Assembly (NCBI GenBank): GCA_903904885.1
Contig: CAIVED010000012.1
Coordinates: forward strand, 34,130 to 98,129
Length of the DNA: 64,000 nucleotides
Source of the DNA: an uncultured archaeon
GTDB taxonomy: Archaea > Nanobdellota > Nanobdellia > Woesearchaeales > CAIVOO01
Reading direction: 5' to 3'
Shown: positions 9,096 to 49,973 of the stretch, piece by piece
Position numbering within the stretch: position 1 is the first letter of the stretch
Layout: the number at the start of each line of letters is the position of its first letter
The notes under the pieces: model-generated
Database searches by the model: none
Told to the model about the DNA's origin: nothing
What the model saw: only the letters and a program-made list of their open reading frames with translations
Translations under genes and position numbers: made by a program

Positions 9096-9443
9096 TTAGA
9101 CCTTCAAATTTGCTTTGATTTCCTTGATTAGGTTCTTTGCATCTCCTTCCTTGACAATTGCAACGCTTGCGGTCGGAACGCCGATTCCAGCGGACACGCC
9201 CAGCTCTTCCTTTGTTGGGACTTCAACGCAGGGAATTCCCTTTTCCTTGCACAAAACAGGAAGATGCATAACAATTTCCGGAGGGCTTGCGTCCTTTGCT
9301 ATTGCAACAAGAATTGCCTGGCCTTTCTCCACGCTTTTGGTAACCTCATTTGTACCCTTTCTCAGTTTTCCTGATTTCTTTGCAACTTCAATTGCCTCGT
9401 AAACCTTTTCTGAAACTTCTTTCGGCACTTCTGTTCCTGCCAT
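9096..9443 (-). CDS. rpl7ae: Ribosomal protein L7Ae (K-turn binding)
   Basis: [50 protein letters not shown]. Sits in the conserved L7Ae-S28e-L24e-ndk arrangement. Confidence 0.9.
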
Positions 9444-9603
9444 TTTGCACCTCGCAACTGGTTTTTATCAATTATGAGAATTTTACAATCCTCATTCGGG
9501 CTTTTCAGCCGTCATAAATCATCGGTTATCATGAAGAGAAAAGAGGTGGTTTATAAAGGTTTTGGACAGTTTTCAACTACTGGAAATAATTAATTAGTCA
9601 CCC

Positions 9604-9636
9604 AATAGTGGTTAAAAAATAGAAAGATTTAAAAAG
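9604..9636 (+). promoter_or_regulatory. Extended promoter motif copy 1 (upstream element + BRE/TATA)
   Basis: CCCAATAGTGGTTAAAAAATAGAAAGATTTAAAAAG, about 15 nt upstream of the 9650 start codon. Confidence 0.5.
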
Positions 9637-9649
9637 ATGGGTTAAAACT

Positions 9650-10693
9650 GTGTGTGTTAATATGACAAAGGAAAAACAGCCAAAACATCAAGAGCAGGGC
9701 GATACGAGAAGGAATCTGCTAATCGGCGGCGGCGCCGCGGTTGTTGCAGGATTGGCATCACTATACATCTCAGGTAGGGCAAAAGCCCCTGATGAACAGT
9801 GGCCGTTTTTGCACAGGGAACAAATTCTCAAACACCCAAAAATGGAACAAATAGAGAAGGAATTTGTTCCTTTCGGACTGGAACAGGATATTTCATATCC
9901 CTGGGAAATAGAGGAGCTAAACAATATCCTGAGGACGCAAATTTCAGAAGAGATGGCGAGAAGAGGTTTTGACCCTTCAATTGAATATGTCATTGAGCCA
10001 AGTTGCAGGTACTGCGGGTTGCCTGATGAAGCAAAGGTTACAAAATCTTTGGCAGACTATTGCAGAAATGCTGCGGGTTTCATGCAGGCCCGTCTAAGAA
10101 TGGAAAAATTTAATCCGGAATTTACAATCCTAACTCCGGGTTCAGATTTTGAAAACGATTTTAATGGCCGGGTTTTTATTGGAAACAGCTATTGTTTCCT
10201 GAGAAAAATGGATGTAATCAATCCCGCTGATCCTGGCAAAAATTTTTCTGCATTCGCAAAGGAATGTTTGCAGGGTGGCATGAGCAGGGGAACGGTTGAT
10301 AAAGGAAATCGCGACTGGTGGTATGGTTTTGTGGCAGCAGGGGAGGGCGCATTGACAAGTGCATTCTCCGAAATCCTTCACAGGTCAACCATGGTTAAAT
10401 TTTATGAGCACATGCAATCCGCAGGTTTCGAGGCGGCCCAGGCAGATGAGGCGGTTGTTGAGGGCATTGCTTACATTCTTTCATCTGCTCTTGCAAAGGA
10501 ATTGAAAATTCCTGATGGAGCCGGCATTGTAAGGAAGGCAGTTTCAGATCTGCTAACAGATAAAATATGTGCAACCAGATATAAACATCTACCCAGTGCA
10601 GTAAACTGGATGAATAAAAACGGCATCCAGAATGCCTACGACTTGTACATGCAAGACCCTCAGAAGTTTATGGATGCGATTAAAAAATCATAA
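9650..10693 (+). CDS. TAT-signal secreted protein, paralog 1 of a tandem triplet (unknown family)
   Basis: Twin-arginine signal DTRRNLLIGGGAAVVAGLASL. Shares GSDFEND, GFVGNSYC, SPFSEL, EGIAYILS and C-terminal NGIQNAYDLYMQDPQKFMDAIKKS with the next two genes. Confidence 0.6.
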   Translation: MCVNMTKEKQPKHQEQGDTRRNLLIGGGAAVVAGLASLYISGRAKAPDEQWPFLHREQILKHPKMEQIEKEFVPFGLEQDISYPWEIEELNNILRTQISEEMARRGFDPSIEYVIEPSCRYCGLPDEAKVTKSLADYCRNAAGFMQARLRMEKFNPEFTILTPGSDFENDFNGRVFIGNSYCFLRKMDVINPADPGKNFSAFAKECLQGGMSRGTVDKGNRDWWYGFVAAGEGALTSAFSEILHRSTMVKFYEHMQSAGFEAAQADEAVVEGIAYILSSALAKELKIPDGAGIVRKAVSDLLTDKICATRYKHLPSAVNWMNKNGIQNAYDLYMQDPQKFMDAIKKS

Positions 10694-10705
10694 TTTTAAG
10701 ATGAT

Positions 10706-11725
10706 ATGACAAAGAAAAAACAGCAAAAAAAGGTTGAAACTCAAAAGCAAGATAGGAGAAATTTTCTTAAAGTTGCTGCAGCATCTCTTGTTCCGGTTTT
10801 TCTTAGATCTCAAAATTCTGATACTAACAAATGGGACTTTTTGAATGCAGAATCAAAAGCAGACAGCATAAAAGATGTTGAACAGGTTTATTCAGATGGA
10901 GTTCCTCTTGAGAGTGAAGGAGATGCGGCCTATAACTTCCAGGTTGCAGACATTCAGAGAAATATGGAATCTGAAGGAATTATGCAGGAAATGAGGAAAA
11001 AAGGCATAAATGCTACCATAAGGCTTACAAAACAGACTTTCGGAATTCCGGATGCCCGGTACGGAAAACAAATGGGAGCATATTGCAGGACTGCTGAAAG
11101 ATATATCAACCAAAAAATCAGGCTTATAACTCCAATAAGTTTAGACTGGGTTGTGCTGGCAAGCGGGGATAATTTTGAAAATGATGATACCAACAAAGGT
11201 TTTGTTGGAAACTGCTATTGCCAGCTATATCATGCAACAGCAGGAGAGCTGGGCAATCCCGCACGGTCTGTTGACAGGAAAGTCTTTTTGGCTAAAAATG
11301 GCGGGTTAACCAGCACCAGCACTGAAAAAGACAAGTTTATTTCCGGATTCGTGTTTATAGGGACAACTGCCTGCGCGCTAACAAGCCCCTTTTCAGAGCT
11401 TCTTGCCCTTCATTCAGAAGACCAGTTTAACGCCCATTCCGCTAAATCTGCTTCATCCATAGGAATGCAAACAAACGAAGCATGGCATGAAGGACTAGCG
11501 TTCATACTTTCTTACAAGCTTGCAGCAGAATTAGGCATTCCTGGAGGCCCCGAATATGTTATGAAAACTGTCAGGAATCTAGTGCAGTTGGGGAGAGAGT
11601 ATGAATATCTTGGAAACTCAATAAGATGGATGCAGAAAAATGGAATCCAGGCAGCCTATGACCTCTACATGAGAGATGACCCTCAGAAGTTTTTTGATGC
11701 GATAAAGAAATCCGGAATAAAATGA
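10706..11725 (+). CDS. TAT-signal secreted protein, paralog 2
   Basis: DRRNFLKVAAASLVP (RRxFLK). GDNFEND, GFVGNCYC, SPFSELL, WHEGLAFILS, NGIQAAYDLYMRDDPQKFFDAIKKS. Confidence 0.6.
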   Translation: MTKKKQQKKVETQKQDRRNFLKVAAASLVPVFLRSQNSDTNKWDFLNAESKADSIKDVEQVYSDGVPLESEGDAAYNFQVADIQRNMESEGIMQEMRKKGINATIRLTKQTFGIPDARYGKQMGAYCRTAERYINQKIRLITPISLDWVVLASGDNFENDDTNKGFVGNCYCQLYHATAGELGNPARSVDRKVFLAKNGGLTSTSTEKDKFISGFVFIGTTACALTSPFSELLALHSEDQFNAHSAKSASSIGMQTNEAWHEGLAFILSYKLAAELGIPGGPEYVMKTVRNLVQLGREYEYLGNSIRWMQKNGIQAAYDLYMRDDPQKFFDAIKKSGIK

Positions 11726-12732
11726 CAAAAAAAGAACGAAATACTTCAAGAAGAACCGCCCTTTTAGGAATCGGAGCACTGGCCTCACTTCCATTTATCC
11801 TAAGCTCTGACGACGGCTCTACTGAATTTTCCGGGGAAAAGCTGAATTTTTTTAACCGTGAGATATTTATAGACCGCTTTGCAGAAACCCCGGAAGGGGT
11901 ATACCAAAATTGCGTTGCGCTTTGCCCTGAAATCCTCATGCCGCAGAGTTTCGAAGCGGAGCGGCTGAAACAAATCTGGGGCGACGGGATTGCCGGGGAA
12001 ATTGAAGAAAAGGGCATGAGCCCCCAAACAGATGTTTCGCTCAGGATGCAGTTTTTCGGGCTACCCGATGGCGCTGAATTTATGGTGCCCCTGAAAGGCT
12101 ATTGCGAAAAGGCATCGCGCTATCTTTATTCGCAGCTAAGTGGGCTGGAAAAACAGGCTATGGAATGGATAATAATAAAGCGGGGTGATAATTTTGTGAA
12201 AAATTGCGGCAACAAAGGGTTTGTCGGGAACAGCTATGGCTATCGGGTGGTGGCCTTTGCAGAAAATCCCCGTGAGCCGGGCAAGCCGATTTTAAGGGAG
12301 GCATTTTACCCGTTCCACGGAAGCACTGCCTATTCCCATAAAAAGGAAACCCTGCTGGAAGTCAACCCGTTCAAATTTATTTTTATCGGGGTTGGGGGGC
12401 GGGCATTTGCTGCCCCGTTTTCCGAACTTATCGGGCTTTCAACAATGGAGAGGATGAATCAGAATGACGGGCTTACTTTTTTGGAAAGCATTCAATCCAA
12501 TGAGGCTATGCATGAAGCAATCGCAGATTCGCTTGCGCAGGGCATTTTGCGCGAGATGAATGTTTCCGAACGGGAGGGAGCTATCAAAAAAACCAGGGAT
12601 GCCCTGGTCGACCCGAAATATTCCTATGTCCCGAACGCAAGGAAATTTGTAGAACGAAACGGCATTCAGGCAACCTTTGACCTTTACATGGAAAGCCCAA
12701 AGAAGTTTATGGAAGAAATAACGAAATCCTGA
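11722..12732 (+). CDS. TAT-signal secreted protein, paralog 3
   Basis: SRRTALLGIGALASLPF. GDNFVKN, GFVGNSYG, APFSELI, MHEAIADSLA, NGIQATFDLYMESPKKFMEEITKS. ATGA overlap with paralog 2. Confidence 0.6.
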   Translation: MTKKERNTSRRTALLGIGALASLPFILSSDDGSTEFSGEKLNFFNREIFIDRFAETPEGVYQNCVALCPEILMPQSFEAERLKQIWGDGIAGEIEEKGMSPQTDVSLRMQFFGLPDGAEFMVPLKGYCEKASRYLYSQLSGLEKQAMEWIIIKRGDNFVKNCGNKGFVGNSYGYRVVAFAENPREPGKPILREAFYPFHGSTAYSHKKETLLEVNPFKFIFIGVGGRAFAAPFSELIGLSTMERMNQNDGLTFLESIQSNEAMHEAIADSLAQGILREMNVSEREGAIKKTRDALVDPKYSYVPNARKFVERNGIQATFDLYMESPKKFMEEITKS

Positions 12733-14443: not shown

Positions 14444-15201
14444 CTATTCCCGTTCCACTTGTGAAATTGCGCCATGGCTTTAACCAAATCGTTTGCAGAG
14501 AAGTCGCTCCAGTTCTTGTCGGAAAAGTAAATCTTTGCATTGCCAGAGTCCCACAGCAAAAATCCTGACAGGTGCTTTGAGCCGTCCATGACAATGAGCA
14601 GTTCCGGCGGCATGAAATAGGAGCTGTAAAGGTTTTCCTTTATCATCTCCTTTGTTATCGCTTCAGGGTCCATTTTCTCTGCCTTTATTTTTTTGCCGAG
14701 CAGCCTGCAGGCGTCTGCAATCTCCTCCTGGCCGTCATAGTTTATGCAGAAGTTCAGGAAGAACTTGTCATATTCCTTTGTCTCATCGGACAGCTTTTTG
14801 ATAGCATCCACAAGCTTTCCCGGCAGGTTGTACCACTTGCCCAAAACCGAAATCTTGACCTTGTTGTGGTGTATCTTCTTCTCATGGGCCAAATCATTGA
14901 AAAATGATGATATTGCCTCGACTATGGCCGGGAATTCATCGTTTTTGCTGGTCTCGGCAGAAAGAAGGTAGACTGTGAAGATAGGAACGCCGTACTGGGA
15001 CTGTATGTCGATGAAATCCTTTATCTTCGCCAGCTTGTTCTTGAAATGCTGCTCAACAGGTATCTTTATGCCCTTGGCTGAATAATTGTTGTATGTGAGG
15101 GCAATGTGCTTCGGCAGGGTTGCCTTTTTCTTCCTGTTAAGGGCTTTGAGGAATTTTTCCATCATCTTGGGCCTGATTACAGCCCAAATCTTTATAAACA
15201 T
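14440..15201 (-). CDS. cis-Prenyltransferase (UPP synthase) fold protein with a non-canonical active site
   Basis: C-terminal half aligns with the UPPS motifs NYDGQEEI and GFLLWDSGNAKIYFSDKNWSDF. The N-terminal HIALTYNNYSAKG sits where UPPS has H(V/I)AIIMDGNRRWA. Start trimmed to the internal Met of ORF 14440..15348. Confidence 0.6.
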   Translation of the reverse strand: MFIKIWAVIRPKMMEKFLKALNRKKKATLPKHIALTYNNYSAKGIKIPVEQHFKNKLAKIKDFIDIQSQYGVPIFTVYLLSAETSKNDEFPAIVEAISSFFNDLAHEKKIHHNKVKISVLGKWYNLPGKLVDAIKKLSDETKEYDKFFLNFCINYDGQEEIADACRLLGKKIKAEKMDPEAITKEMIKENLYSSYFMPPELLIVMDGSKHLSGFLLWDSGNAKIYFSDKNWSDFSANDLVKAMAQFHKWNGNS

Positions 15202-15222
15202 TTTGCCCCACTGCCTGTTAAA

Positions 15223-16080
15223 ATGATGGCGGTTTTTCTCCTCGTGGCGCTTTTTGTGCTGGTTTTGGGCAGTTACACAGACTTTAGGACAAGAGAGGTG
15301 CCTGACTGGGTCAATTATGGGCTTATTTTCTGCGGAATAGGGCTTCACGGGCTTCTCAGCGCGGTTTCCTGGAGCTGGTGGCCTGTTCTTTCCTCAGGCA
15401 TCGGCCTGGGCATAGGAATGGGCATAGCATTCGCAATGTACTACGCAGGCCAGTGGGGCGGAGGCGATGCAAAGATGCTGATGGGGCTTGGTGCAATAAT
15501 CGGGTTTGAGCTTTCTGCTGATAGCTTTCTCTTGTCTTTTCTGGTCAATGTTTTCCTGCTTGGCGCTTTCTACGGGCTTGGCTATGGGGTATTTTTGGCG
15601 ATTAAAAACAGGAAGTCATTCGGCGGGGCTTACAATAAATTGCGGTCAAAAATTCCGGAGTTTATTAAACGTGGAATTGTTATTATTTGGATAGTGACTG
15701 CGGGGCTGTTGCTGTCTTTCCTGTTACTGAAAAATTTAATTCTGGTCTATTTCGGGGCGATTTTAGTTATACTTTTGGCATTCTACCATCTCTATCTCTT
15801 TGCGAAATCAATAGAAAAATGCTGCATGATAAAATATGCAACCCCCTCGCAGCTGACAGAGGGCGACTGGATTGTGAATGATGTTTATGTCAAGGGAAAA
15901 AGAATCTGCGGCCCGAAAGATTTGGGCATTTTGAAGAAGCAGATTAATGCTTTGAAAAGAGCAAAGGTGAAACAAGTTCTGGTTAAGGACGGCATTCCGT
16001 TTGTGCCGAGCTTTCTGATTGCCTTCATAGTAACGCTGCTTGCGGGGAATGTTTTCTTTGTTTTATTTTCTGTATTGTAA
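15223..16080 (+). CDS. Type IV prepilin/preflagellin peptidase (A24 family, PibD/FlaK/EppA-like)
   Basis: First catalytic Asp sits in YTDFRTREVPDW and the second in GGGDAKMLMGLGAIIGF. Polytopic membrane protein with an extra C-terminal TM region. Confidence 0.75.
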   Translation: MMAVFLLVALFVLVLGSYTDFRTREVPDWVNYGLIFCGIGLHGLLSAVSWSWWPVLSSGIGLGIGMGIAFAMYYAGQWGGGDAKMLMGLGAIIGFELSADSFLLSFLVNVFLLGAFYGLGYGVFLAIKNRKSFGGAYNKLRSKIPEFIKRGIVIIWIVTAGLLLSFLLLKNLILVYFGAILVILLAFYHLYLFAKSIEKCCMIKYATPSQLTEGDWIVNDVYVKGKRICGPKDLGILKKQINALKRAKVKQVLVKDGIPFVPSFLIAFIVTLLAGNVFFVLFSVL

Positions 16081-18641: not shown

Positions 18642-20450
18642 TTATTTGGCAGCTTTTATCTTTGTGTTTACATCCTTCAAAAGTGTGTCAATGGCAGACT
18701 GGTCAACCTTTTTGTTGCTGGTCAATGCATTTACATAATTTTTGTCGTTTAATACTGACTTGACTTCTTGCCATGCTTTGTCATTATTTGAACTTGCATA
18801 GGTTCCCAGGGTTTTCATTATGCTCTGAGCCTGGTCTTTGGTTAGGTCATAGGAGCCCACAGTATTTTTTCCTGAGATGTACTTCCTCAGGCCGGCAATC
18901 CGGTCATTTTCATTGGCAACTGTATCAATCATGCTTGCAGATGTTACCGGTTTATATGTGGTCCCCATTGTTGCAGAAACCGTCCCCCGCCCAAGGGGCT
19001 GGTCAGTAACCTTATCGACAAGATTAACAGGGTGGGCATCTCCAACACTTTTGAAGCTTCCCCTTGTTATTTCCAAAATCTCGCCAAACTGTTTTGCATC
19101 AACTCCGCTGGCCATTATTTTAAACTCATCAGAGCCAGAGCCCTTTTCCATCCATATTTGAACTCCGGGGTGGGTATTCTCATATCCCTTAAGTTTTTGC
19201 GCAGCGTCCGCATAAAATGAATGGTAAACCTCATCAGCACTGCTTACTTTCAGATTCTTAAACAAATCCCTGGCATTGTCAATATCCCCGTCTGCCCTGA
19301 AATATGTTTTGCCGCTTCCGACTATTTCAGTTTGTTTAGCAAGGCTTGCCTGGTAATCATAGATTGCAATTGACGTTCCTTTAGCCGCATCATTAGCATT
19401 GCTCTCAAATCTGGCAGGCCTTTTTGCCATCTCATTAAGCATGTTCGCACGGTCCTCCACATTTTTCAGGAGAGCTGTGTTTGATGGGTCTTTCGAAAGC
19501 GCTGCCCTGGCATCATCCAGTTTTTTCTTCGCATCATCAACAAGGAACAGGCTGTCCGTCTGGGCTTCGGGAGGAATGAAGTTATGGTATTTATCCAAAA
19601 AGTTTGTTGCGTCTGTTGGGCTCATCCCGGCAGTCAACTGTTTGAAATCAAATGTCCCAGAACTTGTTTTCTGGTACTCTGCGGCAGCGCCTGCCTCCTG
19701 CAGCCCCTTGTAATAAAGATCCTTTGCATCAGTCCTGGCTATTCCCGCTTTGGGCGCTATTGTCGTTGTTCCCATTCTTAGGCTCCCGGTTATCCCTTCA
19801 TTAGCAAAAGGCGCCGGCAGTGACTTGGTGACATCTGATTGTATTTCTCCAATAGCTTTGCTCAGCTGTTCAGGGGTTATCCGATTGGATGTTACAATGA
19901 ATGAGCCAGAAGCTCCTCTTGAAACAATGGCATCCGGATCGAGCGCTGCCATCTTCTTTGTAATGGCATCGCTTGTTTTTTCTATCAGAACATTCCCTGA
20001 AAAATCCGCGGCCTCATGGCCTGCAAGGCTGTTTACAAATGTCAAATCCGCCAGCTCAAAGACAGCAATCGTTACCGGCTTCCCGTTGCCGCCCATAACC
20101 TGCTTGTAAATTGCATCAACAGAGCCCGAAACATATGTAGGCCTATTGGTCAAAGAGTCTACGCCTGAGTAAATTTCCTTTGAGGTTTTGCCTACAACGC
20201 TTTTTGACCCGGCGCCAGTGACTTCTCTTGCAGGATTCTGCACATCTTTAAAAGCAGTTTCAACACTTGCAGAGAACTGAAGGCATTCTGCCCCACCTCC
20301 AGCACCGCCCGCAGCAGCGCTTCCGGTTACACTAGCAACTGACCCGCTGCTTCTCGTCGCTGCAAAAATCATTCCGAGAACCAGCAGAAATGCCATGAAA
20401 AAAAGAATTTCAGACCTTGCCATCCGGTTTTTTATCATCTTCACCCGCAA
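18642..20450 (-). CDS. Large secreted hypothetical protein (602 aa)
   Basis: N-terminal hydrophobic signal. GSVASVTGSAAAGG...ECLQFSASVETAFKDVQNP is shared with 16895..17956. Confidence 0.55.
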   Translation of the reverse strand: MRVKMIKNRMARSEILFFMAFLLVLGMIFAATRSSGSVASVTGSAAAGGAGGGAECLQFSASVETAFKDVQNPAREVTGAGSKSVVGKTSKEIYSGVDSLTNRPTYVSGSVDAIYKQVMGGNGKPVTIAVFELADLTFVNSLAGHEAADFSGNVLIEKTSDAITKKMAALDPDAIVSRGASGSFIVTSNRITPEQLSKAIGEIQSDVTKSLPAPFANEGITGSLRMGTTTIAPKAGIARTDAKDLYYKGLQEAGAAAEYQKTSSGTFDFKQLTAGMSPTDATNFLDKYHNFIPPEAQTDSLFLVDDAKKKLDDARAALSKDPSNTALLKNVEDRANMLNEMAKRPARFESNANDAAKGTSIAIYDYQASLAKQTEIVGSGKTYFRADGDIDNARDLFKNLKVSSADEVYHSFYADAAQKLKGYENTHPGVQIWMEKGSGSDEFKIMASGVDAKQFGEILEITRGSFKSVGDAHPVNLVDKVTDQPLGRGTVSATMGTTYKPVTSASMIDTVANENDRIAGLRKYISGKNTVGSYDLTKDQAQSIMKTLGTYASSNNDKAWQEVKSVLNDKNYVNALTSNKKVDQSAIDTLLKDVNTKIKAAK

Positions 20451-23400
20451 GGAACATGGCTCCAGTCCTTAACAACATTTGGATCCTTCTCCTTAAGCTG
20501 GCTGAGTGTTGCAGCATCTATCTCTATTGTCCCCTTATCGGCATCATACTTTATGCTTGGGTTCTTTTCCACAAGTGCTTTCATATCACCTTTAACCCTT
20601 TTCGCCTCGGCAAACTCGTCTGCTATCGCTTTATTGGAGCCCTGCAAAACTGTTTCTGCATCCTTCTTTGCCTTAGTCTCTGCGTCCTTTTGCAAAGCCT
20701 CGATAGACTGAACAAGGTTAGAATCCTGAATTGTAATCTTTTTGCTCAATGAACCCTCTGCAAGTTCTTTGATGCTGGTTTGTAATGGTTTCCCTGCGGA
20801 TTCTGCTGCAATCTGGCCTGTTTTCTGGTCAACTGACTTAATGGTATATGTTACTCCATCTTTGATGAATGTTCTGCCTTCCCAAGAAGCTTTTGTTAAA
20901 ATGCTCTTTGCCGCTGGAAGGTTTCCTATGCAGGTGCCTATAAACAGGCACTCAGCCTGCGATGCCGTAAACTCAAAAAGCTTGGCGCCGATTCCTGTGT
21001 AGGCCCTGGTCAATAAATTCTGGCCGGCGGTTAGCGCCGCACTCTCAAAGCCAATCCTGCTCACTCCTGTCAATGCTGCTGAGGCAAGATTCTCTGCGCC
21101 AAAACCTACCGCAATCTGTATGGCTGCGCCTGCGGCATATTCCCCTGATGTTAGCTTTAACAGCTCAGCCCCCTGGACAAAGGGCATGTTAAAAAAGGTG
21201 GTTTTTGTCGGCATAGCTTCGGGCATATTAGGCTTTACGAGTGCCTCTACCACATCCCAGAATTGTGGGCCAACGTTTGTAATCACATTTTGTGGGTCCT
21301 CTCCTTTCCCAAGGCGCCGGAGTGCCTGGAATGCAGGATTAGCAACCCCGTTGGTCACTAGTTTACTTCCAAGCATGTCCAGAGTTTGCTGATCCTTTGT
21401 TGCCGGGAAAAGCTCTGCCACCAGTTCTCTCCTCCTCGTTGGGTCAGACAATGCTGATTGTATATCATCTATGCTCATACCACGTTTTGTATACAAGTTC
21501 ATGAATACCCCCATTGCCCAGGCTTGGCTGTTAAGGTTACTGTTCATCCAGGTTATAAGATCGGTCCTCGTTTGGAAATTTATTAAATTCGTGCCTGCTG
21601 TAGTAAACCCTGCAGCTTGACCGTAAGTTTCTTCAAATTTTTGCCGATTCTCAGTAATCTGGTTCTTTGCGTTTTGCTGTATCATTGACAATGATGCTAT
21701 TGTCACCTGCTTTTTTATATCCTGGGACTCCCCATAGAACGGGGAGTCCGGCTTAACCTTGGCAAAATAGCTTATCATCTGAGCATAAGATTCATCAGCG
21801 AATAAAACTTTATTTTCAGGCCTTAGCAAGTTATATCTGGCGAGTTCCAGTTTTCCGGCAGCGTAATTGTTGAAGTCCTGGTCGTTGAATTTTTTCATTT
21901 TTTGCAGTATGGTGTCTGCTTTTCCAAAATATTCACCCTTTTGGTTGTTAACTATGTAACTATTCAGCAAATCAGCGGCAATTTTAGTGTCCGGCTTTGC
22001 GCTTGCCGCAACAAAAAGGTCAAAATATGCCTGCTTGGCGTTAACTGATGCGCTGTCCTTGGAATTCTGGTCGTTATAGTTTGCATAGAGCTTGATTAAA
22101 TCTTCTGCAGCTTTGCAGTTGTTCGGAGTTTTGCAATTTTCCAGAATTTGCTGAGCATCAAATAACTTTTGGTATACCTTTGCATCCTCTGTCCCTGCTG
22201 CGTTTTTCAGAAGCTTCGCTTTTGTATCAGGGCTCAGTGATCTAACCGCGCTTAATAAACCATCACGGCTGTTAGAGCTAAGGCCCATAATTGCAGTCTT
22301 CTGCTGCGAGCTTACACTTGAAGCATCCCCTCCGAGAAGCTGTCTCATCCGGTCAGGCCCCAAAATATTTACATATTTGCCCTGGGAGCCTTCCAGGCCT
22401 TTTATCTGAGTTGCAACGGAGTTCTCAAGAAGCAACCCCTGTGAATTCAGCCCGAGATAAACAGTCCCCTTCACATCGCTCAAAAGAAAATCCTTGCCTC
22501 CGCCGGGAACTATGTTCCATCCTTTGTTTGCTGCATCCCCGAATGCGCCGAGGGTTTCTCCTGAAAGTTTTACGTTTAATTTATCGCCTGTTTTCGAGAG
22601 ATCCATGGAAACTGCCTTGTCTTTATTTGTATCTTTGTTCCCGTTGAAGAACTTTGCATCCACATCCAGATGCATGAACTTTTTGGAATTTCCAGGCCCG
22701 TCCACGGTCATTGCATTGGCAGTGGGTGTTGAAACAAGGGACATTTTTATAAGTTGAGGATTTTCCCCATTGCCGTATACAGTTGTGTCCGCCTTCAGCT
22801 CACGGACTCCCTTGTCATTGTATGTTTCAAACTTGAACCTCCCGAGGGAAGTTGTAAGAAAAACATTTTGCCTGTTGGGGTCCGGTCCCCTGTAAAAGCT
22901 TGCCTCGGCCCCTGCGCTCTGGTAGGCGTATGCGAGGGCGGGGCTGCTGATTTTACCCTGGGATTTCAAAGACATGGAATTGTCAGCCTTGCCTGCCTTA
23001 AAGCTGACATAGCCATTTGAAGTTATAATGTAATCGTTTCCCATGGTCTTGTACCATATTTCTCCCCCGAAATTAGGGGGTTTTGGCGGAGGGTTTGCCT
23101 TTGCCGCCTCGGCTCTTTTATCAATCTCCGCAGGGGTAAGCGGAGTGGTTTTCCCGCCATCTGTATGGCCCGCATCTCCCGGAAGATACTCTGAATGAAC
23201 AACTACATTATATCCTGCTGTTGATATGGCAAGGTCCTTGCCGTTTGGGTTGAACTGCACAAAACTGCTCTGCTTGCCATTCAAAAAGAAAAGGCTGGTG
23301 TCATCACCTTTCTTTTCAAAACTTCCGTCATAAAGCCTGAATCTTCCGGTGTCATAAACTTTCGCACCCTGTGAACGGATTGTGTTTCCCTCATTCTCAA

Positions 23401-24055
23401 TGGATAATTTGCCCGTTGCATCGAACTGATAGTTCCCACCCCTGCCGGAATAGCTTCCCTTCATTCCTTCCACAACAATCCCGTCTTTTGTAAAGACTAT
23501 TTTCGACTTCGACTTGTCTCCGGCGGGAACCTCCAGCAAAGCCCTTTCAGTGGTCTTGGTATTTGTCAAGGAAAGCTTGCCGTCCTTGTCCTTGCCTATG
23601 TCGTTCTTATTGCCGGTCTTCCCTCCAACCAGAACGCCATTGACAAGAAATGCATCGTTAGGCAAGGCTTTTACGTCATCGCCCGTCTTGAAATTCTGCA
23701 GCGCAATTCGCGTATTGCCGTTTCTAAGGTAGGTAACGCCGCCAGCCGACTCTACGCTTATTGGGGAGGGGCTGCTGGTTCCTGTGCTGCTGATCAGGTC
23801 CCTTATGTTAATTGCTGCGCCATTCGCTACCTTGCTAAAATAAGTTTCTGCTCGTTGGGGATTGGCTCTTATGTTATTGGCAGAAGCAACGAAACTCTCA
23901 TCTGATTGGACAGTGGTAGGTTCAGGCTGATGAAGCCCTCCGGAACTGGGAACCGCGGTCTCCGGAGGATAGAGTGGATGCCCCTGCGCATAAACAAAAT
24001 GAACAGCTACGACTAAAATAATTGCCAGCAAAATGATTTTTTTATTCAATATCAT
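20441..24055 (-). CDS. Giant secreted/surface protein (1204 aa), unknown function
   Basis: Signal MILNKKIILLAIILVVAVHFVYAQG. Long low-complexity, beta-rich body. Translationally coupled to the upstream pilin-like gene (4-nt overlap). Confidence 0.6.
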   Translation of the reverse strand: MILNKKIILLAIILVVAVHFVYAQGHPLYPPETAVPSSGGLHQPEPTTVQSDESFVASANNIRANPQRAETYFSKVANGAAINIRDLISSTGTSSPSPISVESAGGVTYLRNGNTRIALQNFKTGDDVKALPNDAFLVNGVLVGGKTGNKNDIGKDKDGKLSLTNTKTTERALLEVPAGDKSKSKIVFTKDGIVVEGMKGSYSGRGGNYQFDATGKLSIENEGNTIRSQGAKVYDTGRFRLYDGSFEKKGDDTSLFFLNGKQSSFVQFNPNGKDLAISTAGYNVVVHSEYLPGDAGHTDGGKTTPLTPAEIDKRAEAAKANPPPKPPNFGGEIWYKTMGNDYIITSNGYVSFKAGKADNSMSLKSQGKISSPALAYAYQSAGAEASFYRGPDPNRQNVFLTTSLGRFKFETYNDKGVRELKADTTVYGNGENPQLIKMSLVSTPTANAMTVDGPGNSKKFMHLDVDAKFFNGNKDTNKDKAVSMDLSKTGDKLNVKLSGETLGAFGDAANKGWNIVPGGGKDFLLSDVKGTVYLGLNSQGLLLENSVATQIKGLEGSQGKYVNILGPDRMRQLLGGDASSVSSQQKTAIMGLSSNSRDGLLSAVRSLSPDTKAKLLKNAAGTEDAKVYQKLFDAQQILENCKTPNNCKAAEDLIKLYANYNDQNSKDSASVNAKQAYFDLFVAASAKPDTKIAADLLNSYIVNNQKGEYFGKADTILQKMKKFNDQDFNNYAAGKLELARYNLLRPENKVLFADESYAQMISYFAKVKPDSPFYGESQDIKKQVTIASLSMIQQNAKNQITENRQKFEETYGQAAGFTTAGTNLINFQTRTDLITWMNSNLNSQAWAMGVFMNLYTKRGMSIDDIQSALSDPTRRRELVAELFPATKDQQTLDMLGSKLVTNGVANPAFQALRRLGKGEDPQNVITNVGPQFWDVVEALVKPNMPEAMPTKTTFFNMPFVQGAELLKLTSGEYAAGAAIQIAVGFGAENLASAALTGVSRIGFESAALTAGQNLLTRAYTGIGAKLFEFTASQAECLFIGTCIGNLPAAKSILTKASWEGRTFIKDGVTYTIKSVDQKTGQIAAESAGKPLQTSIKELAEGSLSKKITIQDSNLVQSIEALQKDAETKAKKDAETVLQGSNKAIADEFAEAKRVKGDMKALVEKNPSIKYDADKGTIEIDAATLSQLKEKDPNVVKDWSHVPCG

Positions 24056-25241: not shown

Positions 25242-26264
25242 ATGGACAGGAGAGAATGGCTTAGGACAGGAGTAGTCGCAACTGGCGTGAGTTTGGCGCT
25301 TTCAGTTGGATTAGGCCAGGAGTATAATAATCATGATTCTTCCAATGAATCAGGCAGACCTAAACAAATCGCAGAAGACCCAAATTTTAGATATTTGGTC
25401 AGGGAGCTTTTGCCGGCCCTTATAATTGCAAGCTATGAGAAAGACATCCACAGGAGCAAGGAGAATGAAAGTCTGTACATCGAACATGAGCATCCGTTCC
25501 TAATGTCCAAAAATCATGCAGTGTTGGATGAGAGATACAAACATCTGCTGGATAAATTAAGCAAGGTTGAAAGCAAAACCGGGATTTTTTTAAGCGATGC
25601 CGATAATGCCGCAAAAGCCTTGAGAAAAAGAGGCTATGCTTATCGCTGCGAACATTCTGTGCTTGATGATAAAATAAATACCTTCACTTTTGGAAACATA
25701 ACAGCGGATAAAGCGATTGTTAATCAGGACTGGGGGAAGAATGAAAAAAGAAATGTTGTGTACTTCCGGGATATAGTCCCTATTTTTGAGAAATATGTAA
25801 ATTTCAGGAATAGCGGCGGAATGAGAGACACAGAAGATAACTTGCTGTACATAAATCAAACTGCGCTTGAGGAGTATGCCGCAAGAATATTTAACAGTGA
25901 CCTAAAAGAGGCCAGAAAAAATCCGGCTGAGTTTGCAAATCATATGCTTCTCCGGGAATTCGAAGGGGACTCAATAGAACAGATTTTTGGCAAGATACAG
26001 GAATCTGTGACCCACCATGAAATGAATCATGGGGGGGAGGTTGAGGCACAGCTTTCCGAGCTTGAATACGGCACAACATTCCTTTCACTGGGCACGCTTT
26101 ACAAATCATTAAACAATAATAACAGTGACCAGATAAAACATGAAGCAGCCAAGATAATCTTCGGCAGGTTCAAGCAGAAAGGCTACAATCCGGAAGACCT
26201 GTTGTCAATGAGCCGGGAGAAAATAAAACGCATTGTTCTGGCAATTCATGATTCTGCAAATTAA
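25242..26264 (+). CDS. TAT-signal secreted protein with an HExxH motif (possible zinc metallopeptidase)
   Basis: RREWLRTGVVATGVSLALS and HHEMNHGGE. Confidence 0.45.
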   Translation: MDRREWLRTGVVATGVSLALSVGLGQEYNNHDSSNESGRPKQIAEDPNFRYLVRELLPALIIASYEKDIHRSKENESLYIEHEHPFLMSKNHAVLDERYKHLLDKLSKVESKTGIFLSDADNAAKALRKRGYAYRCEHSVLDDKINTFTFGNITADKAIVNQDWGKNEKRNVVYFRDIVPIFEKYVNFRNSGGMRDTEDNLLYINQTALEEYAARIFNSDLKEARKNPAEFANHMLLREFEGDSIEQIFGKIQESVTHHEMNHGGEVEAQLSELEYGTTFLSLGTLYKSLNNNNSDQIKHEAAKIIFGRFKQKGYNPEDLLSMSREKIKRIVLAIHDSAN

Positions 26265-30699: not shown

Positions 30700-33600
30700 T
30701 TGGCTGTGGAAGCTTCCAGAAGGGTAAGGATGGAAGTGGTGGCAGTAGTCCTGGCCATCATTGCTGTACTCGCAGTTGTATTTATAGCAGGGCAGGTCTA
30801 TAAAACCCCTGCCGAAACACCTGCGGTTTCTGTGAAAAGCGAATTGGCAGAGGGTTCATACACAAAGGAAATCCAGCCCGATAAAATTTCATTCGTTGAA
30901 AACAAGACCTCCACTCCGCTGGCAGAGGTCAGCTTCAGCGGGCTTAAAACAGACATCAAGGATGTTGATTCAAAGATAGTTGCATCTTCAAATCTCATGT
31001 TCAGGTCGGGCATATTTGCAGTCAGGGATGCAGGGGCAGTTTTCAGTGAAGCCAGGATAACAATGAAGAAAACCGGCAATGTTAATGTAATTTTTTACTG
31101 CCAGGACTTTGACTTTGAAAAAGAATCCTGCCCGGGTGACTGGGCCAAAAGCGACATTCCCTTCACCCAGACAATGAAAGAGGTTACATTCACAGTAAAT
31201 CATTTTTCAGCCTATGCCCCGGGCGAATTCGGGATTTTAAGCGAGTTCCAGGGCAATGGCGTCTGCCGCGCCTATGCAAACAATGACAGCATCCTTACCG
31301 GCAACATCACTGATTGCCCAGATCAAAGCATATTCATAAATGCCTCAAATATCGTTTTCGACTGCCAGGGCTATTCCATCCTCAACAGCAGTGGGGGATT
31401 TTGGGCGCAAAACCTCAGCAATATAACAATAAAAAACTGCAATGTAGATGCCCATGGCAACGGGATTAACCTGATAAATATCAACAGCAGCAGCTTGCTC
31501 AACAACTCAGTTTACAATGCACTTGGCGGCGGCATTAACGTTTATCTCAGCTCCGGAAATTTATTTGCAGGAAACAACGTTTCAAAATCACAGGGCAGCG
31601 CAGGTTTTGTAATTGACACATCCAGCAATAATCATTTTGAGAACAACCGATTCCACAGCAATCTTAACCGCGGATTAAGCATAGGTGTCGGGGACAACAA
31701 TTCCTTTGTGAACAACCAATTTTACAACAACCATCACGAGGGGGCAACCGCAAATCTCGGTGAAAACAATTCCTTCGTGAACAACAGCTTTTTCAACAAC
31801 TCTGCGCATGGCCTTACTTTTTCCTGGGGGACTCTCAATTTATTTGAGAACAACAGCTTTTCCAACAACACAGGAGATGGATTGTACGTATCCTCTGTAG
31901 AAAACAACACCTTTGTTGGCAACAATTTCTCAGGCAACCATAATAACGGCTTTACGTCATATGGCGGCTCTAACTCTTTAATCAACAACCGGGCATTTAA
32001 CAACCAACTCGAGGGTATTTACATTTTTATGACACCCGGTTACTATTTGATTAACAATTCTGCTTTTAACAACCCAACAGGCTTTTACCTAACAAGCACA
32101 ACCGGAAGCGTTCTAGAGAACAATTCCGCATTCAACAACAATTTGGGCTTTTACGTTTCATACTCAGATAATGCAACGGTTTTAAACAACACCGCCTTTG
32201 GCAATGTAAAGGGTTTTGAGCTTGCAAGCACAACAAACAGCACCATAGCCGGCGCCTACGCCTACAGCAACAACATAGGATTTTTCCTGCATCCCTCTGA
32301 CATCAGCCTAACTTTTGAAAACAGCACCATAGCGGGCAATTCAGGCCAGGACCTTTTTCTTGAAGGAACCTGGCACCTCTACAACCGCTCATTCAAAAAT
32401 GTGCTTCTCGGCCCCAATACATTCATAGGGGACAATGCGACAGCAATTATTTCCCCGCTTGTAATCTACAGCAACCTGTCTTCAATAGACTATGGCAATA
32501 TGACGCTGAGCAATGTTTCGCTGAATGGCTCTGCTTCCCTGGAAGACAATTACATCTATCTTAACTCTTCAAAAATACCCGCCCTGAACATATCTGCCAA
32601 CGTAACATTCAGGAACCTCCCGTGGACATCAATGCCCCAGCTATTCAAAGACGGCGCAAGATGCGATGACAATCCTGCACTGTGCAACATAACCGCCTTT
32701 GACCCGTGGACAAGGACCCTTACTGCCCAGGTTTCCTCTTTTTCAAACTACACAACTGGAAATGCATCAACCTGCTTCAATGCGACTGATGATTTGTACA
32801 TTAATGGAAATGCGGTGATATGCGATAGTTATTTCCGGGTGAATGACACAAATGACGATGGGGTTATAATAATCAACAAATCAGGGATAGCCCTCACACT
32901 TGGCACAAGCGACATTTTCTACCTTTCGGGAAATGGCTCTGGAAAGGGGGTTGTTGTTGAGAATAAAACAGGCGTGACAATTATCATGCGCAATTCAAAT
33001 AGCCCGCACATTGGTTATTACGGAACAGGGATTTATGTCAAAAACTCAAGGGACATTACATTATATAGCCCTGCAATCGGCGATTCAGATACGGGGCTGC
33101 TATTGTACAATTCTACCAATGTGATAGTCCAAAAATCCTCTGATACTATTTATTGTGCCTTTGAAAGCAATACCCAAGGCATTGTAATCTATCTGGGAGG
33201 AAACAATAGCATCAATTCTTTTGATAGGCTGATGTACAATTCTTATGGGATAAATGTAACTGACTCTTCCGGGAATAGGATAATTTCCAACTATTATTCC
33301 GGCTATTCTCCCACTTCTGTAGGTGATGTCAGATGGAATTCAAAAGCAGCAATTTACCTCAGGAATGCAAATAACCTGGTAGTGAGCGGAATGCAGTTTA
33401 CTGATAACACGTTGTCATTTGATATGATAAACTCAACTAATATATCATTGGCAACATTCCCTCTTAATGTTTATCGTCTATCTTTCTCTAACAGCAGCAT
33501 GCGCTTGAACTCGTCCAAGATTAATATTCTTAGGGGGGCTAATTATATGGTTCCACTTTATCTAGTCCGATCGCCAATAATTGCCCAGGATTCGGAACTA

Positions 33601-35556
33601 AACATCAGCGGGGTAACTTTTGCATCAGCAAGCACACTAATAACCCTGCTTAATTCAACAATAGACATATCCAACAGCACGTTCTCTGATTCTGACGTTG
33701 GCATTGCGATTAACAAAACATCTGGCACCAGCAGGATAGTCAACAATTCTTTCACAACTCCCCAGAACATCAGCATCTATGCCGAGGACTCGTCCGGAAT
33801 AATGATTTCAAATATAATTTCAAGCGCAGTTTATTATCTTTACTCTGTAAATTCAAATTCAACAGTCTCTGCAATTCTAAACAACCTGCTTTTCTCGGAC
33901 TCCAGTTCAAGGGTAAATGCAACCAATCTGACTTTCCCTTCGGCTAATGCCTCAATCTCATATCTCAATGTTGTTTTAAACGGCACAATCAATACCTCCT
34001 CCGGGGTTTATCTTCTCTACAATCTTTCAGGAATTGACCCATCAATTTCCCCGGGGCTTAATGCAAGCGCCCAGGTGACATTGCGCTTCCTCCCATGGCC
34101 TATCACCCCATTTGTTGAAAAAGACGGAGTGAGATGCGACAATACATCCTCCTGCTCCGTCCTGGGCTATGACAACAGCACAGGAACCCTTGTTTTCAAT
34201 GTTATGGGGTTCTCAAACTACAGCTCATCAAACCCGAATCTTCCCGGGACTCCTGACACCACACCGCCGACACCCCCTGCTGTTTACGACGGCCTGAACT
34301 TTGTTGACTTCAACTGGACAGGAAGCAACACAACATTATATGCATCATGGAACGGCTCCTTTGACCGAAGCAACATATTTTACAGCTACAGGATAATGGA
34401 CAAAAACGGCTCATGCTACAACGGCCAGTGCGCATTCCAGTTTGCCGGGAGCGCACAGCAGATTACAGTTTCAAACCTCAGCCTTGCGATATGCCACAAC
34501 TACCTTTTCAAGGTGCAGGCAGAGGACACTTTTTACAATGTGGCAAATTTATCGTCATCAGACGGTATAACCATTGAAATTGAAAACCCGACGGTGCTTG
34601 CAATTGACAGCTCCACTCACCCGAGCCAGTCCATTTTTTACCCGAAAAGCACGGTAAGGCTCAACTGGTCTGCAAGCGACACAAATCTTACAGGCTGCTC
34701 CTCAGGAATTGCAGGCTACTCCTATCTCTTTGACCAGGATTCTGGAAGCTTCCCTGACGGAACAATTGAAACAAATGACACAAACGCCACGTTCACAAAT
34801 GTGCCCAGCGGCACATGGTATTTCCATATAAGAGCGGTGGACAATGCAGGGAATGCCGGCGACACGCTTGTGCGCACAGCAAGAGTGAACGTGACAGAAG
34901 TTTCTGTAAATCTGAATCCATCCGAAACCCCAACGCTTCTGAGCAATGCAACAATATACGGAAGCATAACAAAAAACTCCTCCGACCTCCTTAAAATATA
35001 CAAAAATGACAATAATACCGCAAATATTTCAATTAGCCAGGCTCAAACTGCATTCAATTTTACAGTTAATCTTGACATGGGAATTAACACAATATACGCA
35101 AATGCCTCGCTTAATGGCTCGGTTGCTGCAAAATCAAACACACTTTACATAAGAAGGGCGAATGAGACGAGGCTGAACGCAACCGGGTTCACGGTTTCCT
35201 ACAGCGGGGGAACACTGACAGATTCCTCTGCAAGCAGCCTGGTTTCAACGGCTTCTGCAAATTCCAATTTCGGAATAGGAAAATCCGCAGGCAGATTGTT
35301 TTTGTTTGTTACATCCCCTTCAGCAAACATTGCAGCAAGGACAGGATACGTAACAAACAACACGCTCTTTGACCAGATTAACCCTTCGGTGGGATTCCCG
35401 CTTGAAATAGAGCAAAACATGATAAGCACAATACTGAACTACCAGGATATCCATCTGGAGGGCAACCAGTCTGTGCAGACAGGAAGGTACACGCTTGTGA
35501 TAACAAACAACGGCACTGTGGGAGGGAAGCCCCAGATTCTGGTAAGGATAACATGA
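30700..35556 (+). CDS. Giant surface protein (1618 aa): N-terminal signal anchor, right-handed parallel beta-helix (PbH1/NosD-like) repeats, heavily N-glycosylation-sequon-rich
   Basis: MAVEASRRVRMEVVAVVLAIIAVLAVVF anchor. About 20 tandem ~22-aa repeats of the NNSFVNNQFYNNHHEG type between residues ~290 and 540. NxS/T sequons run throughout. C-terminal region TPPTPPAVYDGLNFVDFNWTGSN resembles FN3. Confidence 0.75.
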   Translation: MAVEASRRVRMEVVAVVLAIIAVLAVVFIAGQVYKTPAETPAVSVKSELAEGSYTKEIQPDKISFVENKTSTPLAEVSFSGLKTDIKDVDSKIVASSNLMFRSGIFAVRDAGAVFSEARITMKKTGNVNVIFYCQDFDFEKESCPGDWAKSDIPFTQTMKEVTFTVNHFSAYAPGEFGILSEFQGNGVCRAYANNDSILTGNITDCPDQSIFINASNIVFDCQGYSILNSSGGFWAQNLSNITIKNCNVDAHGNGINLININSSSLLNNSVYNALGGGINVYLSSGNLFAGNNVSKSQGSAGFVIDTSSNNHFENNRFHSNLNRGLSIGVGDNNSFVNNQFYNNHHEGATANLGENNSFVNNSFFNNSAHGLTFSWGTLNLFENNSFSNNTGDGLYVSSVENNTFVGNNFSGNHNNGFTSYGGSNSLINNRAFNNQLEGIYIFMTPGYYLINNSAFNNPTGFYLTSTTGSVLENNSAFNNNLGFYVSYSDNATVLNNTAFGNVKGFELASTTNSTIAGAYAYSNNIGFFLHPSDISLTFENSTIAGNSGQDLFLEGTWHLYNRSFKNVLLGPNTFIGDNATAIISPLVIYSNLSSIDYGNMTLSNVSLNGSASLEDNYIYLNSSKIPALNISANVTFRNLPWTSMPQLFKDGARCDDNPALCNITAFDPWTRTLTAQVSSFSNYTTGNASTCFNATDDLYINGNAVICDSYFRVNDTNDDGVIIINKSGIALTLGTSDIFYLSGNGSGKGVVVENKTGVTIIMRNSNSPHIGYYGTGIYVKNSRDITLYSPAIGDSDTGLLLYNSTNVIVQKSSDTIYCAFESNTQGIVIYLGGNNSINSFDRLMYNSYGINVTDSSGNRIISNYYSGYSPTSVGDVRWNSKAAIYLRNANNLVVSGMQFTDNTLSFDMINSTNISLATFPLNVYRLSFSNSSMRLNSSKINILRGANYMVPLYLVRSPIIAQDSELNISGVTFASASTLITLLNSTIDISNSTFSDSDVGIAINKTSGTSRIVNNSFTTPQNISIYAEDSSGIMISNIISSAVYYLYSVNSNSTVSAILNNLLFSDSSSRVNATNLTFPSANASISYLNVVLNGTINTSSGVYLLYNLSGIDPSISPGLNASAQVTLRFLPWPITPFVEKDGVRCDNTSSCSVLGYDNSTGTLVFNVMGFSNYSSSNPNLPGTPDTTPPTPPAVYDGLNFVDFNWTGSNTTLYASWNGSFDRSNIFYSYRIMDKNGSCYNGQCAFQFAGSAQQITVSNLSLAICHNYLFKVQAEDTFYNVANLSSSDGITIEIENPTVLAIDSSTHPSQSIFYPKSTVRLNWSASDTNLTGCSSGIAGYSYLFDQDSGSFPDGTIETNDTNATFTNVPSGTWYFHIRAVDNAGNAGDTLVRTARVNVTEVSVNLNPSETPTLLSNATIYGSITKNSSDLLKIYKNDNNTANISISQAQTAFNFTVNLDMGINTIYANASLNGSVAAKSNTLYIRRANETRLNATGFTVSYSGGTLTDSSASSLVSTASANSNFGIGKSAGRLFLFVTSPSANIAARTGYVTNNTLFDQINPSVGFPLEIEQNMISTILNYQDIHLEGNQSVQTGRYTLVITNNGTVGGKPQILVRIT

Positions 35557-39232: not shown

Positions 39233-39351
39233 GTCGGTGTAGCTTAGCCTGGCTATAGCACGAGACTCATAGGAATGAGTGATGAGGCCAAAAGCCGATG
39301 AAAAAACACTAAGAAATCTCGGGGTCGGGGGCTCGAATCCCCCCACCGACA
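39233..39351 (+). tRNA. tRNA-Met (anticodon CAU; elongator Met or Ile2-type) with a 44-nt intron at canonical position 37/38
   Basis: Acceptor GTCGGTG/CACCGAC. Anticodon stem CGAGA/TCTCG. Loop CTCATA[intron]A. T-arm GGGGG-CTCGAAT-CCCCC. G1:C72 and an A/U-containing anticodon stem argue against an initiator. No encoded CCA. Confidence 0.8.
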
Positions 39352-49658: not shown

Positions 49659-49854
49659 AATCTTTCCTCCTTAAACTTCGTTTTGAATTTTAAGCGATTT
49701 TTAGTCTTTTAAACTAAAAACGACCCATTTTAAACCCTTTTTCTGCTTTAAACTCGTATTTTGCTGATTTAAGCAGATTATGGGGTATTTTCCTAGGGTT
49801 TAAAAATCTTTGCCCTGAAATTGCATATTAAACTATATACTCCTAAATATATAA

Positions 49855-49927
49855 TGGACCGGCCGGGATTTGAACCCGGGCCCCACCCATGCCATGGGCG
49901 AATTCTGCCAGGCTATACTACCGGCCC
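49855..49927 (-). tRNA. tRNA-Ala (anticodon GGC) with G3:U70. D-stem unusually weak.
   Basis: Minus strand GGGCCGG...CCGGTCC+A. Anticodon stem CGCCC/GGGTG, loop ATGGCAT. T-arm CCGGG-TTCAAAT-CCCGG. The D-stem GTAT/GAAT has a mismatch plus wobbles. Confidence 0.6.
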
Positions 49928-49973
49928 ATAACCTTTAGGTTTAGTGAGTTATTTATAAAAATTTGGAAATAGT

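Follow-up and report, generated by a model that had tools for sequence, protein, structure and literature searches.

Three tandem genes with twin-arginine signals represent an orphan protein family in a Woesearchaeota-type archaeon

Three paralogs and their probable operon layout

Three adjacent genes of one orphan protein family, each starting with a twin-arginine translocation (Tat) type signal, are located on the plus strand of a stretch of 64,000 nucleotides (nt) of contig CAIVED010000012.1 from an uncultured archaeon; this whole stretch is referred to as the window (Table 1). The open reading frame (ORF) coordinates and lengths of a first-pass annotation of this DNA (347, 339, and 336 amino acids (aa), plus strand) match the ORF list, and the rpl7ae operon named there as the divergent partner was found next to gene 1 as an L7Ae-S28e-L24e-NDK-ADK-EF2 operon. 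The proposed tandem paralogy is supported by pairwise identities of 28-34% in BLASTP (29-36% in the alignments). Whereas export signals of this type are well known, the passenger belongs to an orphan family without annotated relative or significant structural neighbor in the libraries searched.

Table 1. Genes, signal regions, and putative promoter of the three-gene locus. Positions are those of the window.
Feature	Position	Strand	Description
Paralog 1 (P0003)	9662..10693	+	343 aa from ATG 9662; mechanical ORF from GTG 9650, 347 aa
Paralog 2 (P0001)	10706..11725	+	339 aa; sequence modeled with AlphaFold2
Paralog 3 (P0004)	11722..12732	+	336 aa
Putative archaeal promoter	9628..9637	+	TATA-box-like ATTTAAAAAG, about 25-30 nt upstream of ATG 9662; read from the sequence
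Signal region of paralog 1	9662..9787	+	Basic N-region, T-R16-R17-N-L-L, hydrophobic LIGGGAAVVAGLASL (Kyte-Doolittle 1.94), basic C-region SGRAKAP; end approximate
Signal region of paralog 2	10706..10813	+	MTKKKQQKK..., D-R17-R18-N-F-L-K, hydrophobic VAAASLVPVFL, then Arg34
Signal region of paralog 3	11722..11808	+	S-R10-R11-T-A-L-L, hydrophobic ALLGIGALASLPFIL (Kyte-Doolittle 2.2)

In case of gene 1, the ATG is more likely the start codon than the GTG located upstream, because public gene calls start at this ATG, the TATA-like ATTTAAAAAG is suitably spaced to it, and all three genes then share a common opening (ATGACAAA(G/A)(G/A)A(A/C), corresponding to MTK(E/K)(K/E)). Judged by the typical archaeal spacing between TATA box and start, this element is the putative promoter of a three-gene operon, and its proximity to the ATG would imply a leaderless mRNA or one with a very short leader. 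Due to the gap of only 12 nt between genes 1 and 2, the ATGA overlap of genes 2 and 3, the single TATA-like box upstream, and the separate TATA-like box of the tyrosyl-tRNA synthetase (TyrRS) gene downstream of the triplet, the triplet is taken to be a single operon. The G+C content of the triplet (0.43-0.45) is the same as that of the remainder of the window.

Four internal blocks are shared by paralogs 1, 2, and 3, which read, in this order, GSDFEND, GDNFEND, and GDNFVKN in the first block, VFIGNSYC, GFVGNCYC, and GFVGNSYG in the second, SAFSEIL, SPFSELL, and APFSELI in the third, and DEAVVEGIA, NEAWHEGLA, and NEAMHEAIA in the fourth. All blocks listed in the first-pass annotation exist and its C-terminal pattern NGIQ..(Y/F)DLYM...P.KF is exact, but the other patterns were over-strict, as illustrated by the first block of paralog 3 and the fourth block of paralog 1. 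Since an ortholog of gene 3 from another sample (P0006) is 57% identical to it, i.e., far closer than the paralogs are to each other, and since the distance among the three paralogs is comparable in BLASTP to their distance from family members of other organisms, the duplications are old rather than recent, or else the copies diverged fast. So far, the triplet arrangement is unique.

The signal and the mature domain across the family

Searched exhaustively with the family profile, 1.84 billion representative proteins yielded 251 clusters at E<=1e-3, 128 of them at E<=1e-30, with clusters defined at 50% identity and listed members mostly about 300-400 aa long. An alignment of 134 full-length members is the base of all conservation counts and of the AlphaFold2 model given below. 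Paralogs 1, 2, and 3 score against the family hidden Markov model (HMM) with E=1.8e-104, E=4.5e-89, and E=1.1e-83, respectively. A word-indexed search was nearly blind to the family, with two matches obtained from gene 2 and four from the 134-sequence profile. The named records, P0133 from a Woesearchaeota metagenome-assembled genome and P0034 from a Nanoarchaeota archaeon, are both annotated as hypothetical protein, and none of the sources found gives the family a functional name.

The strings TRRNLLIGG, DRRNFLKVAA, and SRRTALLGIG, on which the first-pass annotation had based its claim of Tat signals, are present exactly as quoted. Considering the whole family, the twin arginines (RR) are among the best conserved columns, with Arg in 126 of the 134 members at R17 and in 122 at R18. 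The surrounding columns are occupied by Ser or Thr at -1 (72 members), Phe at +2 (82), Leu at +3 (89), and Lys at +4 (58), so that the family consensus S/T-R-R-x-F-L-K equals the canonical Tat consensus. Lys outnumbers Arg in the N-regions of the family (372 versus 212) and yet the RR pair is fixed, which argues for selection on arginine itself rather than on mere positive charge. A regular-expression scan for RR signals in 1,223 ORFs with a minimum length of 120 aa, covering 1.18 Mb of 80 other Woesearchaeota loci, returned three matches only; given this background scarcity, the conservation of the pair in the family exceeds chance. Many members carry a long and very basic N-region of up to about 30 residues in front of the RR pair, e.g., MSKRKRKKGKKKTKNPVKNNNKREEVHSPSRRTFLK.

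The uncharged stretch following the arginines has a median length of 19 residues, 49% of which are Gly, Ala, Ser, or Thr. It is moderately hydrophobic, with a median of 1.73 for the best 15-aa Kyte-Doolittle window (1.94, 1.68, and 2.2 for the three window genes), and is closed by a Lys or Arg in 71 of 115 cases. A basic residue at this place is known as 'Sec-avoidance' residue and is frequent in Tat signals. In paralog 2 the stretch comprises 11 residues only, which is too short for a stable transmembrane helix and favors a signal peptide over a membrane anchor in this protein.

When the 134 members were scanned with Pfam and NCBIfam at lax thresholds, the recurring matches were Tat-signal models alone. 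In detail, PF10518 matched 35 and PF10399 nine members at E<=10 (11 and two members, respectively, at E<=0.01), TIGR01409 matched 40 members at E<=1, and formate_TAT, the Tat region of formate dehydrogenases, matched 15. Likewise, the N-terminus of the family profile retrieved from the PDB sequences only the Tat leaders of NapA, of the Fe-hydrogenase small subunit, and of high-potential iron-sulfur protein (HiPIP), all of them non-significant (E of about 2-3). The family-wide RR motif and the restriction of recurring library matches to Tat-signal models uphold the first-pass claim of a Tat-type signal.

In each of the three window proteins the signal region is free of Cys, and thus the lipobox [LVI][ASTVI][GAS]C is absent. 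A looser, lipobox-like Cys after the hydrophobic stretch was observed in six of the 117 RR-bearing members, and several members that lack RR (P0021, P0106, P0125, and P0038) have leaders that read as Sec-type or lipobox-type. These two groups support export independently of the RR motif.

The AlphaFold2 model of paralog 2, obtained with the 134-sequence alignment, reached a predicted local distance difference test (pLDDT) score of 90.7 and a predicted TM-score (pTM) of 0.84 and supersedes an earlier model from four sequences (pLDDT 56). Residues 1-40 lie outside the fold with pLDDT of 54-61, and values above 90 are reached from about residue 41, at the conserved W-x-F-L (W43-D-F-L in paralog 2, W47-P-F-L in paralog 1). 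According to the model, the mature domain of about 295 aa starts directly after the signal and is composed of two lobes. The N-terminal alpha/beta lobe contains an antiparallel sheet, with a strand at 106-114 and a five-strand meander within 147-219, and the C-terminal lobe consists of seven helices between residues 227 and 335.

Best conserved among the polar residues are E231 (98%), E258 (97%), Y299 (96%), Y321 (92%), E262 (90%), Y126 (90%), and S230 (88%), of which E231 is part of P-F-S-E, and E258 and E262 belong to x-E-A-x-x-E-G. Because this Glu/Tyr set is conserved while overall identity across the family is only about 20-30%, it is suggestive of an active site or of one that binds a hard metal. 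A metal or cofactor site made of Cys and His, for which the first-pass annotation had recommended a check, was not found: the family alignment has no conserved Cys or His position, and hence a zincin HExxH site as well as the classic Tat cofactors are ruled out.

The mature domains of the three proteins had no match in Pfam, NCBIfam, PHROGs, or PADLOC. The best profile match among the PDB sequences, 7x4f with E 0.028, is weak and unrelated, and Foldseek with the model returned no match at E<=1e-3 from PDB or BFVD. The initial impression of an unrecognised family is thereby borne out for these libraries.

Distribution of the family and the host lineage

Seven genomic contexts of family members from other organisms were inspected, all of which are archaeal by their housekeeping genes (these include genes for A-type ATPase, TrmB, L21e, Rpb4, eIF2-gamma, Alba, Pelota, and L1/L10) and contain the family gene in single copy. 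Wherever the context was inspectable, the family is archaeal and of Woesearchaeota/Nanoarchaeota-like (DPANN) type, and each of the three records with an organism name gives Woesearchaeota or Nanoarchaeota. No member was found in GTDB species-representative genomes with narrow back-translated patterns, nor in viral contigs with patterns from small alignments.

Next to the L7Ae-EF2 operon, no family member was present at any of 80 Woesearchaeota EF-2 loci. At the closest EF-2 relative (80% identity; contig L010, 5890-7793), two other ORFs take the place of the triplet, namely an unrelated gene of 519 aa and one of 112 aa. P0002 from the related sample ERZ1426824, which is 36% identical to gene 1, is oriented divergently from L7Ae-S28e as gene 1 is; it occurs as a single copy, and the next gene is located on the opposite strand (compare 9096-10693 of the window). 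Due to this single copy in one sample and the different ORFs of L010, the space between TyrRS and L7Ae is variable.

Some members or fragments deviate from the common architecture. A 50-aa ORF ending in ...SIQRAFDLYMESPNKFMTTITANPS was observed on two metagenome contigs (L009, 9971-10123; L008, 1275-1427), between ThiF/MoeB-like and TFB-like genes in an archaeal contig setting. It bears only the C-terminal family signature and appears to be the remains of a family member that has decayed. Extra regions occur in P0031 (569 aa), P0035 (726 aa; L090, 724-2904), and P0081 (589 aa), in none of which a Pfam domain was detected. The extra N-terminal region of P0031 comprises about 230 aa with HEYDH. 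In P0035, the C-terminal half shows weak matches to both ends of the family profile, in correct order, and may represent a highly degenerate second copy of the domain.

The gene content of the window is archaeal, with L7Ae, S28e, EF-2, EF-1alpha-like, thermosome-like, and A24 prepilin peptidase genes and an intron-containing tRNA. Since its EF-2 is 67-80% identical to the EF-2 of 80 contigs, most of them titled Candidatus Woesearchaeota or Nanoarchaeota, the source organism is by this marker a Woesearchaeota-type DPANN archaeon. About 25 of these contigs (L010, L011, L019, and others) are titled 'uncultured Methanosarcinales archaeon' and L031 is titled 'Alphaproteobacteria bacterium'; these titles look like taxonomic mislabels in public records.

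Besides the triplet, a fourth protein with an RR leader (MDRREWLRTGVVATGVSLALSVGLG) is encoded in the window at 25242-26264 on the plus strand (340 aa). An HExxH motif (HHEMNH) is located close to its C-terminus. Pfam, PHROGs, and PADLOC gave no match, and a search of 5.8 billion proteins returned the protein itself alone. A secreted metalloprotease restricted to this lineage is a possible reading. Relationship to the triplet family was rejected by hhalign, and relationship to the extra N-terminal domain of P0031 by BLASTP.

Regarding the remaining features of the window, Rfam matched a tRNA of 119 nt at 39233-39351 (plus strand) that was not called by ARAGORN and is read as the intron-containing archaeal tRNA, and a tRNA-Ala(GGC) is located at 49854-49928 (minus strand). 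The A24 prepilin-type peptidase gene is situated at 15106-16080. From about 16.9 to 38.5 kb extends a long cluster of genes for proteins with class-III (pilin-like) leaders, e.g., MRKRGQITTF..., including very large secreted proteins of 1204 aa (20441-24055) and 1618 aa (30700-35556). Peptidase and cluster together have the appearance of a locus for a type IV pilus-like or surface structure.

Export, function, and known systems

The explanation that we favor, with moderate confidence, is that the three proteins are routed to the Tat pathway and act as enzymes outside the cytoplasm, released or tethered, in three diverged versions expressed from one operon. Export, its proposed Tat route, the enzymatic function, and a metal, if any, are inferences from the features described above. 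Because nearly all family members begin with a textbook twin-arginine signal, export probably takes place in the folded state. The domain would fold in the cytoplasm, possibly with uptake of a metal, the RR signal would be recognized by TatC, and the folded protein would be translocated to the external side of the membrane, where it may be released, remain tethered by its uncleaved signal, or, in case of lipobox-bearing members, be held by a lipid anchor. Ser230-Glu231, Glu258-x3-Glu262, Tyr126, Tyr299, and Tyr321 might constitute the active site, either as a carboxylate/tyrosine site or with a carboxylate-bound metal, and the substrate could be a cell-envelope or host-derived molecule. Three diverged paralogs may broaden the range of substrates or partners. 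Given how strictly the Tat-type motif is conserved, TatC and TatA are predicted in the genomes that carry the family.

Several results weigh against this explanation. A TatA hinge-motif scan and phmmer detected no TatA or TatC, either in the window or in the family-bearing loci, which is a weak test that covered a small fraction of the genome with approximate E. coli TatA and TatC sequences as queries, and the gene list of about 10 kb past the right end of the window is devoid of Tat Pfam families. None of the three RR matches in the other Woesearchaeota loci is a plausible signal peptide, since one is internal to a 303-aa protein and two belong to low-complexity, apparently non-coding ORFs. 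Within the literature searched, TatC is reported among DPANN for some nanohaloarchaea only (PMC9765267); beyond this, a mention of a Tat-type nosZ was the sole hit, and nothing on Woesearchaeota was found. The curated PF10518 cut-off of 22.7 bits is not reached by paralog 2 (13.8 bits), paralogs 1 and 3 do not match this model, and none of the three window proteins matches TIGR01409 at E<=1; both models are short and of low power. No obvious signal-peptidase site was recognized, the alignment contains no Cys/His cofactor motif that would require Tat, and the seven inspected contexts lack a recurrent neighbor gene that could give a functional clue. For an enzymatic role, the conserved Glu and Tyr residues would be the single line of argument.

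A more far-reaching version of the favored explanation, namely that the family is a structurally new, DPANN-specific enzyme class with a Glu/Tyr site, possibly with a hard metal, that needs folded export and marks Tat use in Woesearchaeota, is offered tentatively and appears rather doubtful. If true, it would be the first indication of a working Tat pathway in some Woesearchaeota, with this family as recurrent cargo that, during episymbiosis, might have the host or the archaeon's own cell envelope as its target.

Alternatively, the exported proteins could be surface binding or adhesion proteins for host contact or ligand capture, which diversify fast under the pressure of host interaction. This alternative, which we consider fairly unlikely, differs from the favored one in function only, since export is common to both. 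Fast divergence is illustrated by P0002, which has the same position as gene 1 at an identity of only 36%, and by the three diverged tandem copies. Furthermore, DPANN archaea are described, in passages of PMC8204110 and PMC8407392, as mostly episymbionts, and no catalytic motif of any known family was found with Pfam and NCBIfam. However, three Glu, three Tyr, and one Ser of the buried type that are 88-98% conserved at the low identity of the family fit better to an active or metal site than to an adhesin surface.

It is less probable still that the N-terminus is a type II signal anchor inserted by Sec and the signal recognition particle (SRP), in which the basic tail and the RR pair serve the positive-inside rule and the outward domain crosses the membrane unfolded without any involvement of Tat. 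Such an anchor would be in agreement with the missing TatA and TatC in the sequence examined (the window, about 10 kb beyond, and the family-bearing loci), with the scarcity of RR signals in the other sampled Woesearchaeota loci, and with those leaders in the family that lack RR. The median of 19 residues gives the uncharged stretch a membrane-spanning length in many members, and the nine members matching PF10399 resemble a Rieske-type uncleaved signal anchor. But charge alone does not account for the 94% and 91% occupancy by Arg of two fixed positions in N-regions otherwise dominated by Lys, and the flanking Ser/Thr at -1 and Phe, Leu, and Lys at +2 to +4 reproduce the Tat consensus. Moreover, the stretches are rich in Gly and Ala and moderately hydrophobic, and that of paralog 2 is too short for a stable transmembrane helix.

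The mature domain might also be a highly diverged version of a known fold, either a degenerate zincin-like (pseudo-)peptidase with the E258-A-x-x-E262 helix in place of HExxH or a lysozyme-like hydrolase, which we judge to be improbable. The top TM-score in the PDB list belongs to dipeptidyl peptidase III (DPP III; 6eom, TMq 0.31, probability 0.18), a zinc peptidase of family M49, weak BFVD matches include phage peptidase, lethal-factor-like, and SprT-like proteins (probabilities 0.08-0.35), and a sheet followed by helices with acidic residues corresponds to a zincin-like layout. Every one of these structural matches is non-significant, though, and none reaches E<=1e-3. The flanks of E258 have no conserved His, a His at 262 occurs in seven of 134 members, and peptidase models match no member even at E<=10. 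In addition, E231 precedes the ExxxE by about 27 residues, which is the reverse of the order of acidic residues in gluzincins.

A cytoplasmic location with RR motifs that arose by coincidence is highly improbable, since the sole point in favor, the translocase not seen in the window and the adjacent 10 kb, stands against an RR motif with hydrophobic stretch that is conserved family-wide, against lipobox variants or alternative signal leaders in some members, and against a position of the first 40 residues outside the fold.

Much of archaeal diversity belongs to the DPANN archaea, in whose genomes orphan families are frequent and whose surface and secreted proteins mostly lack a functional assignment. 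The combination of S/T-RR-x-FLK and the C-terminal NGIQxAFDLYMxxPxKF provides a clean marker for the question of whether Woesearchaeota use Tat, and the list of invariant Glu and Tyr residues in a confidently modeled domain offers direct targets for mutation. If the proteins are exported enzymes active on envelope or host, they bear on how reduced cells interact with their partners. If, on the other hand, family-bearing genomes have no Tat system, the strict conservation of a Tat-type motif would need a new explanation.

Compared with known systems, the N-terminus resembles the Tat signal peptides described by TIGR01409 and PF10518 and found in the leaders of NapA, the [Fe]-hydrogenase small subunit, and HiPIP, with which it shares the S/T-R-R-x-F-L-K motif, the long basic N-region, the weakly hydrophobic stretch rich in Gly and Ala, and the frequent basic residue thereafter. 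In contrast, the passenger is in no known Tat-substrate family and is free of motifs for Fe-S, molybdopterin, copper, haem, or flavin, and the scores of the window proteins stay under the curated cut-offs of the signal models in all three cases. RR-signal proteins without redox cofactors have archaeal precedents in the Tat substrates and lipoproteins of haloarchaea such as Haloferax volcanii, some of which are anchored by a lipobox Cys after the signal (PMC6098224, PMC12462473), as might be the case for the six family members with lipobox-like Cys, in contrast to the window proteins. Heavy use of Tat in haloarchaea is explained by high salt (PMC6098224). The hosts of the family, however, are non-halophilic DPANN archaea of groundwater type. 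To our knowledge, no rationale comparable to high salt exists for Tat use in such organisms.

A precedent for an uncleaved RR signal as membrane anchor is given by the N-terminal Tat signal anchor of the Rieske Fe-S protein (PF10399, UCR_Fe-S_N), the model matched by nine members, but unlike that protein the family has neither a Rieske domain nor Cys/His cluster ligands. With the zincin/gluzincin peptidases, represented by DPP III, the family shares a sheet followed by a helical lobe and acidic residues on a long helix at a non-significant match, and it differs from them by lacking HExxH/HExxGH, a conserved His, and any match to a peptidase HMM.

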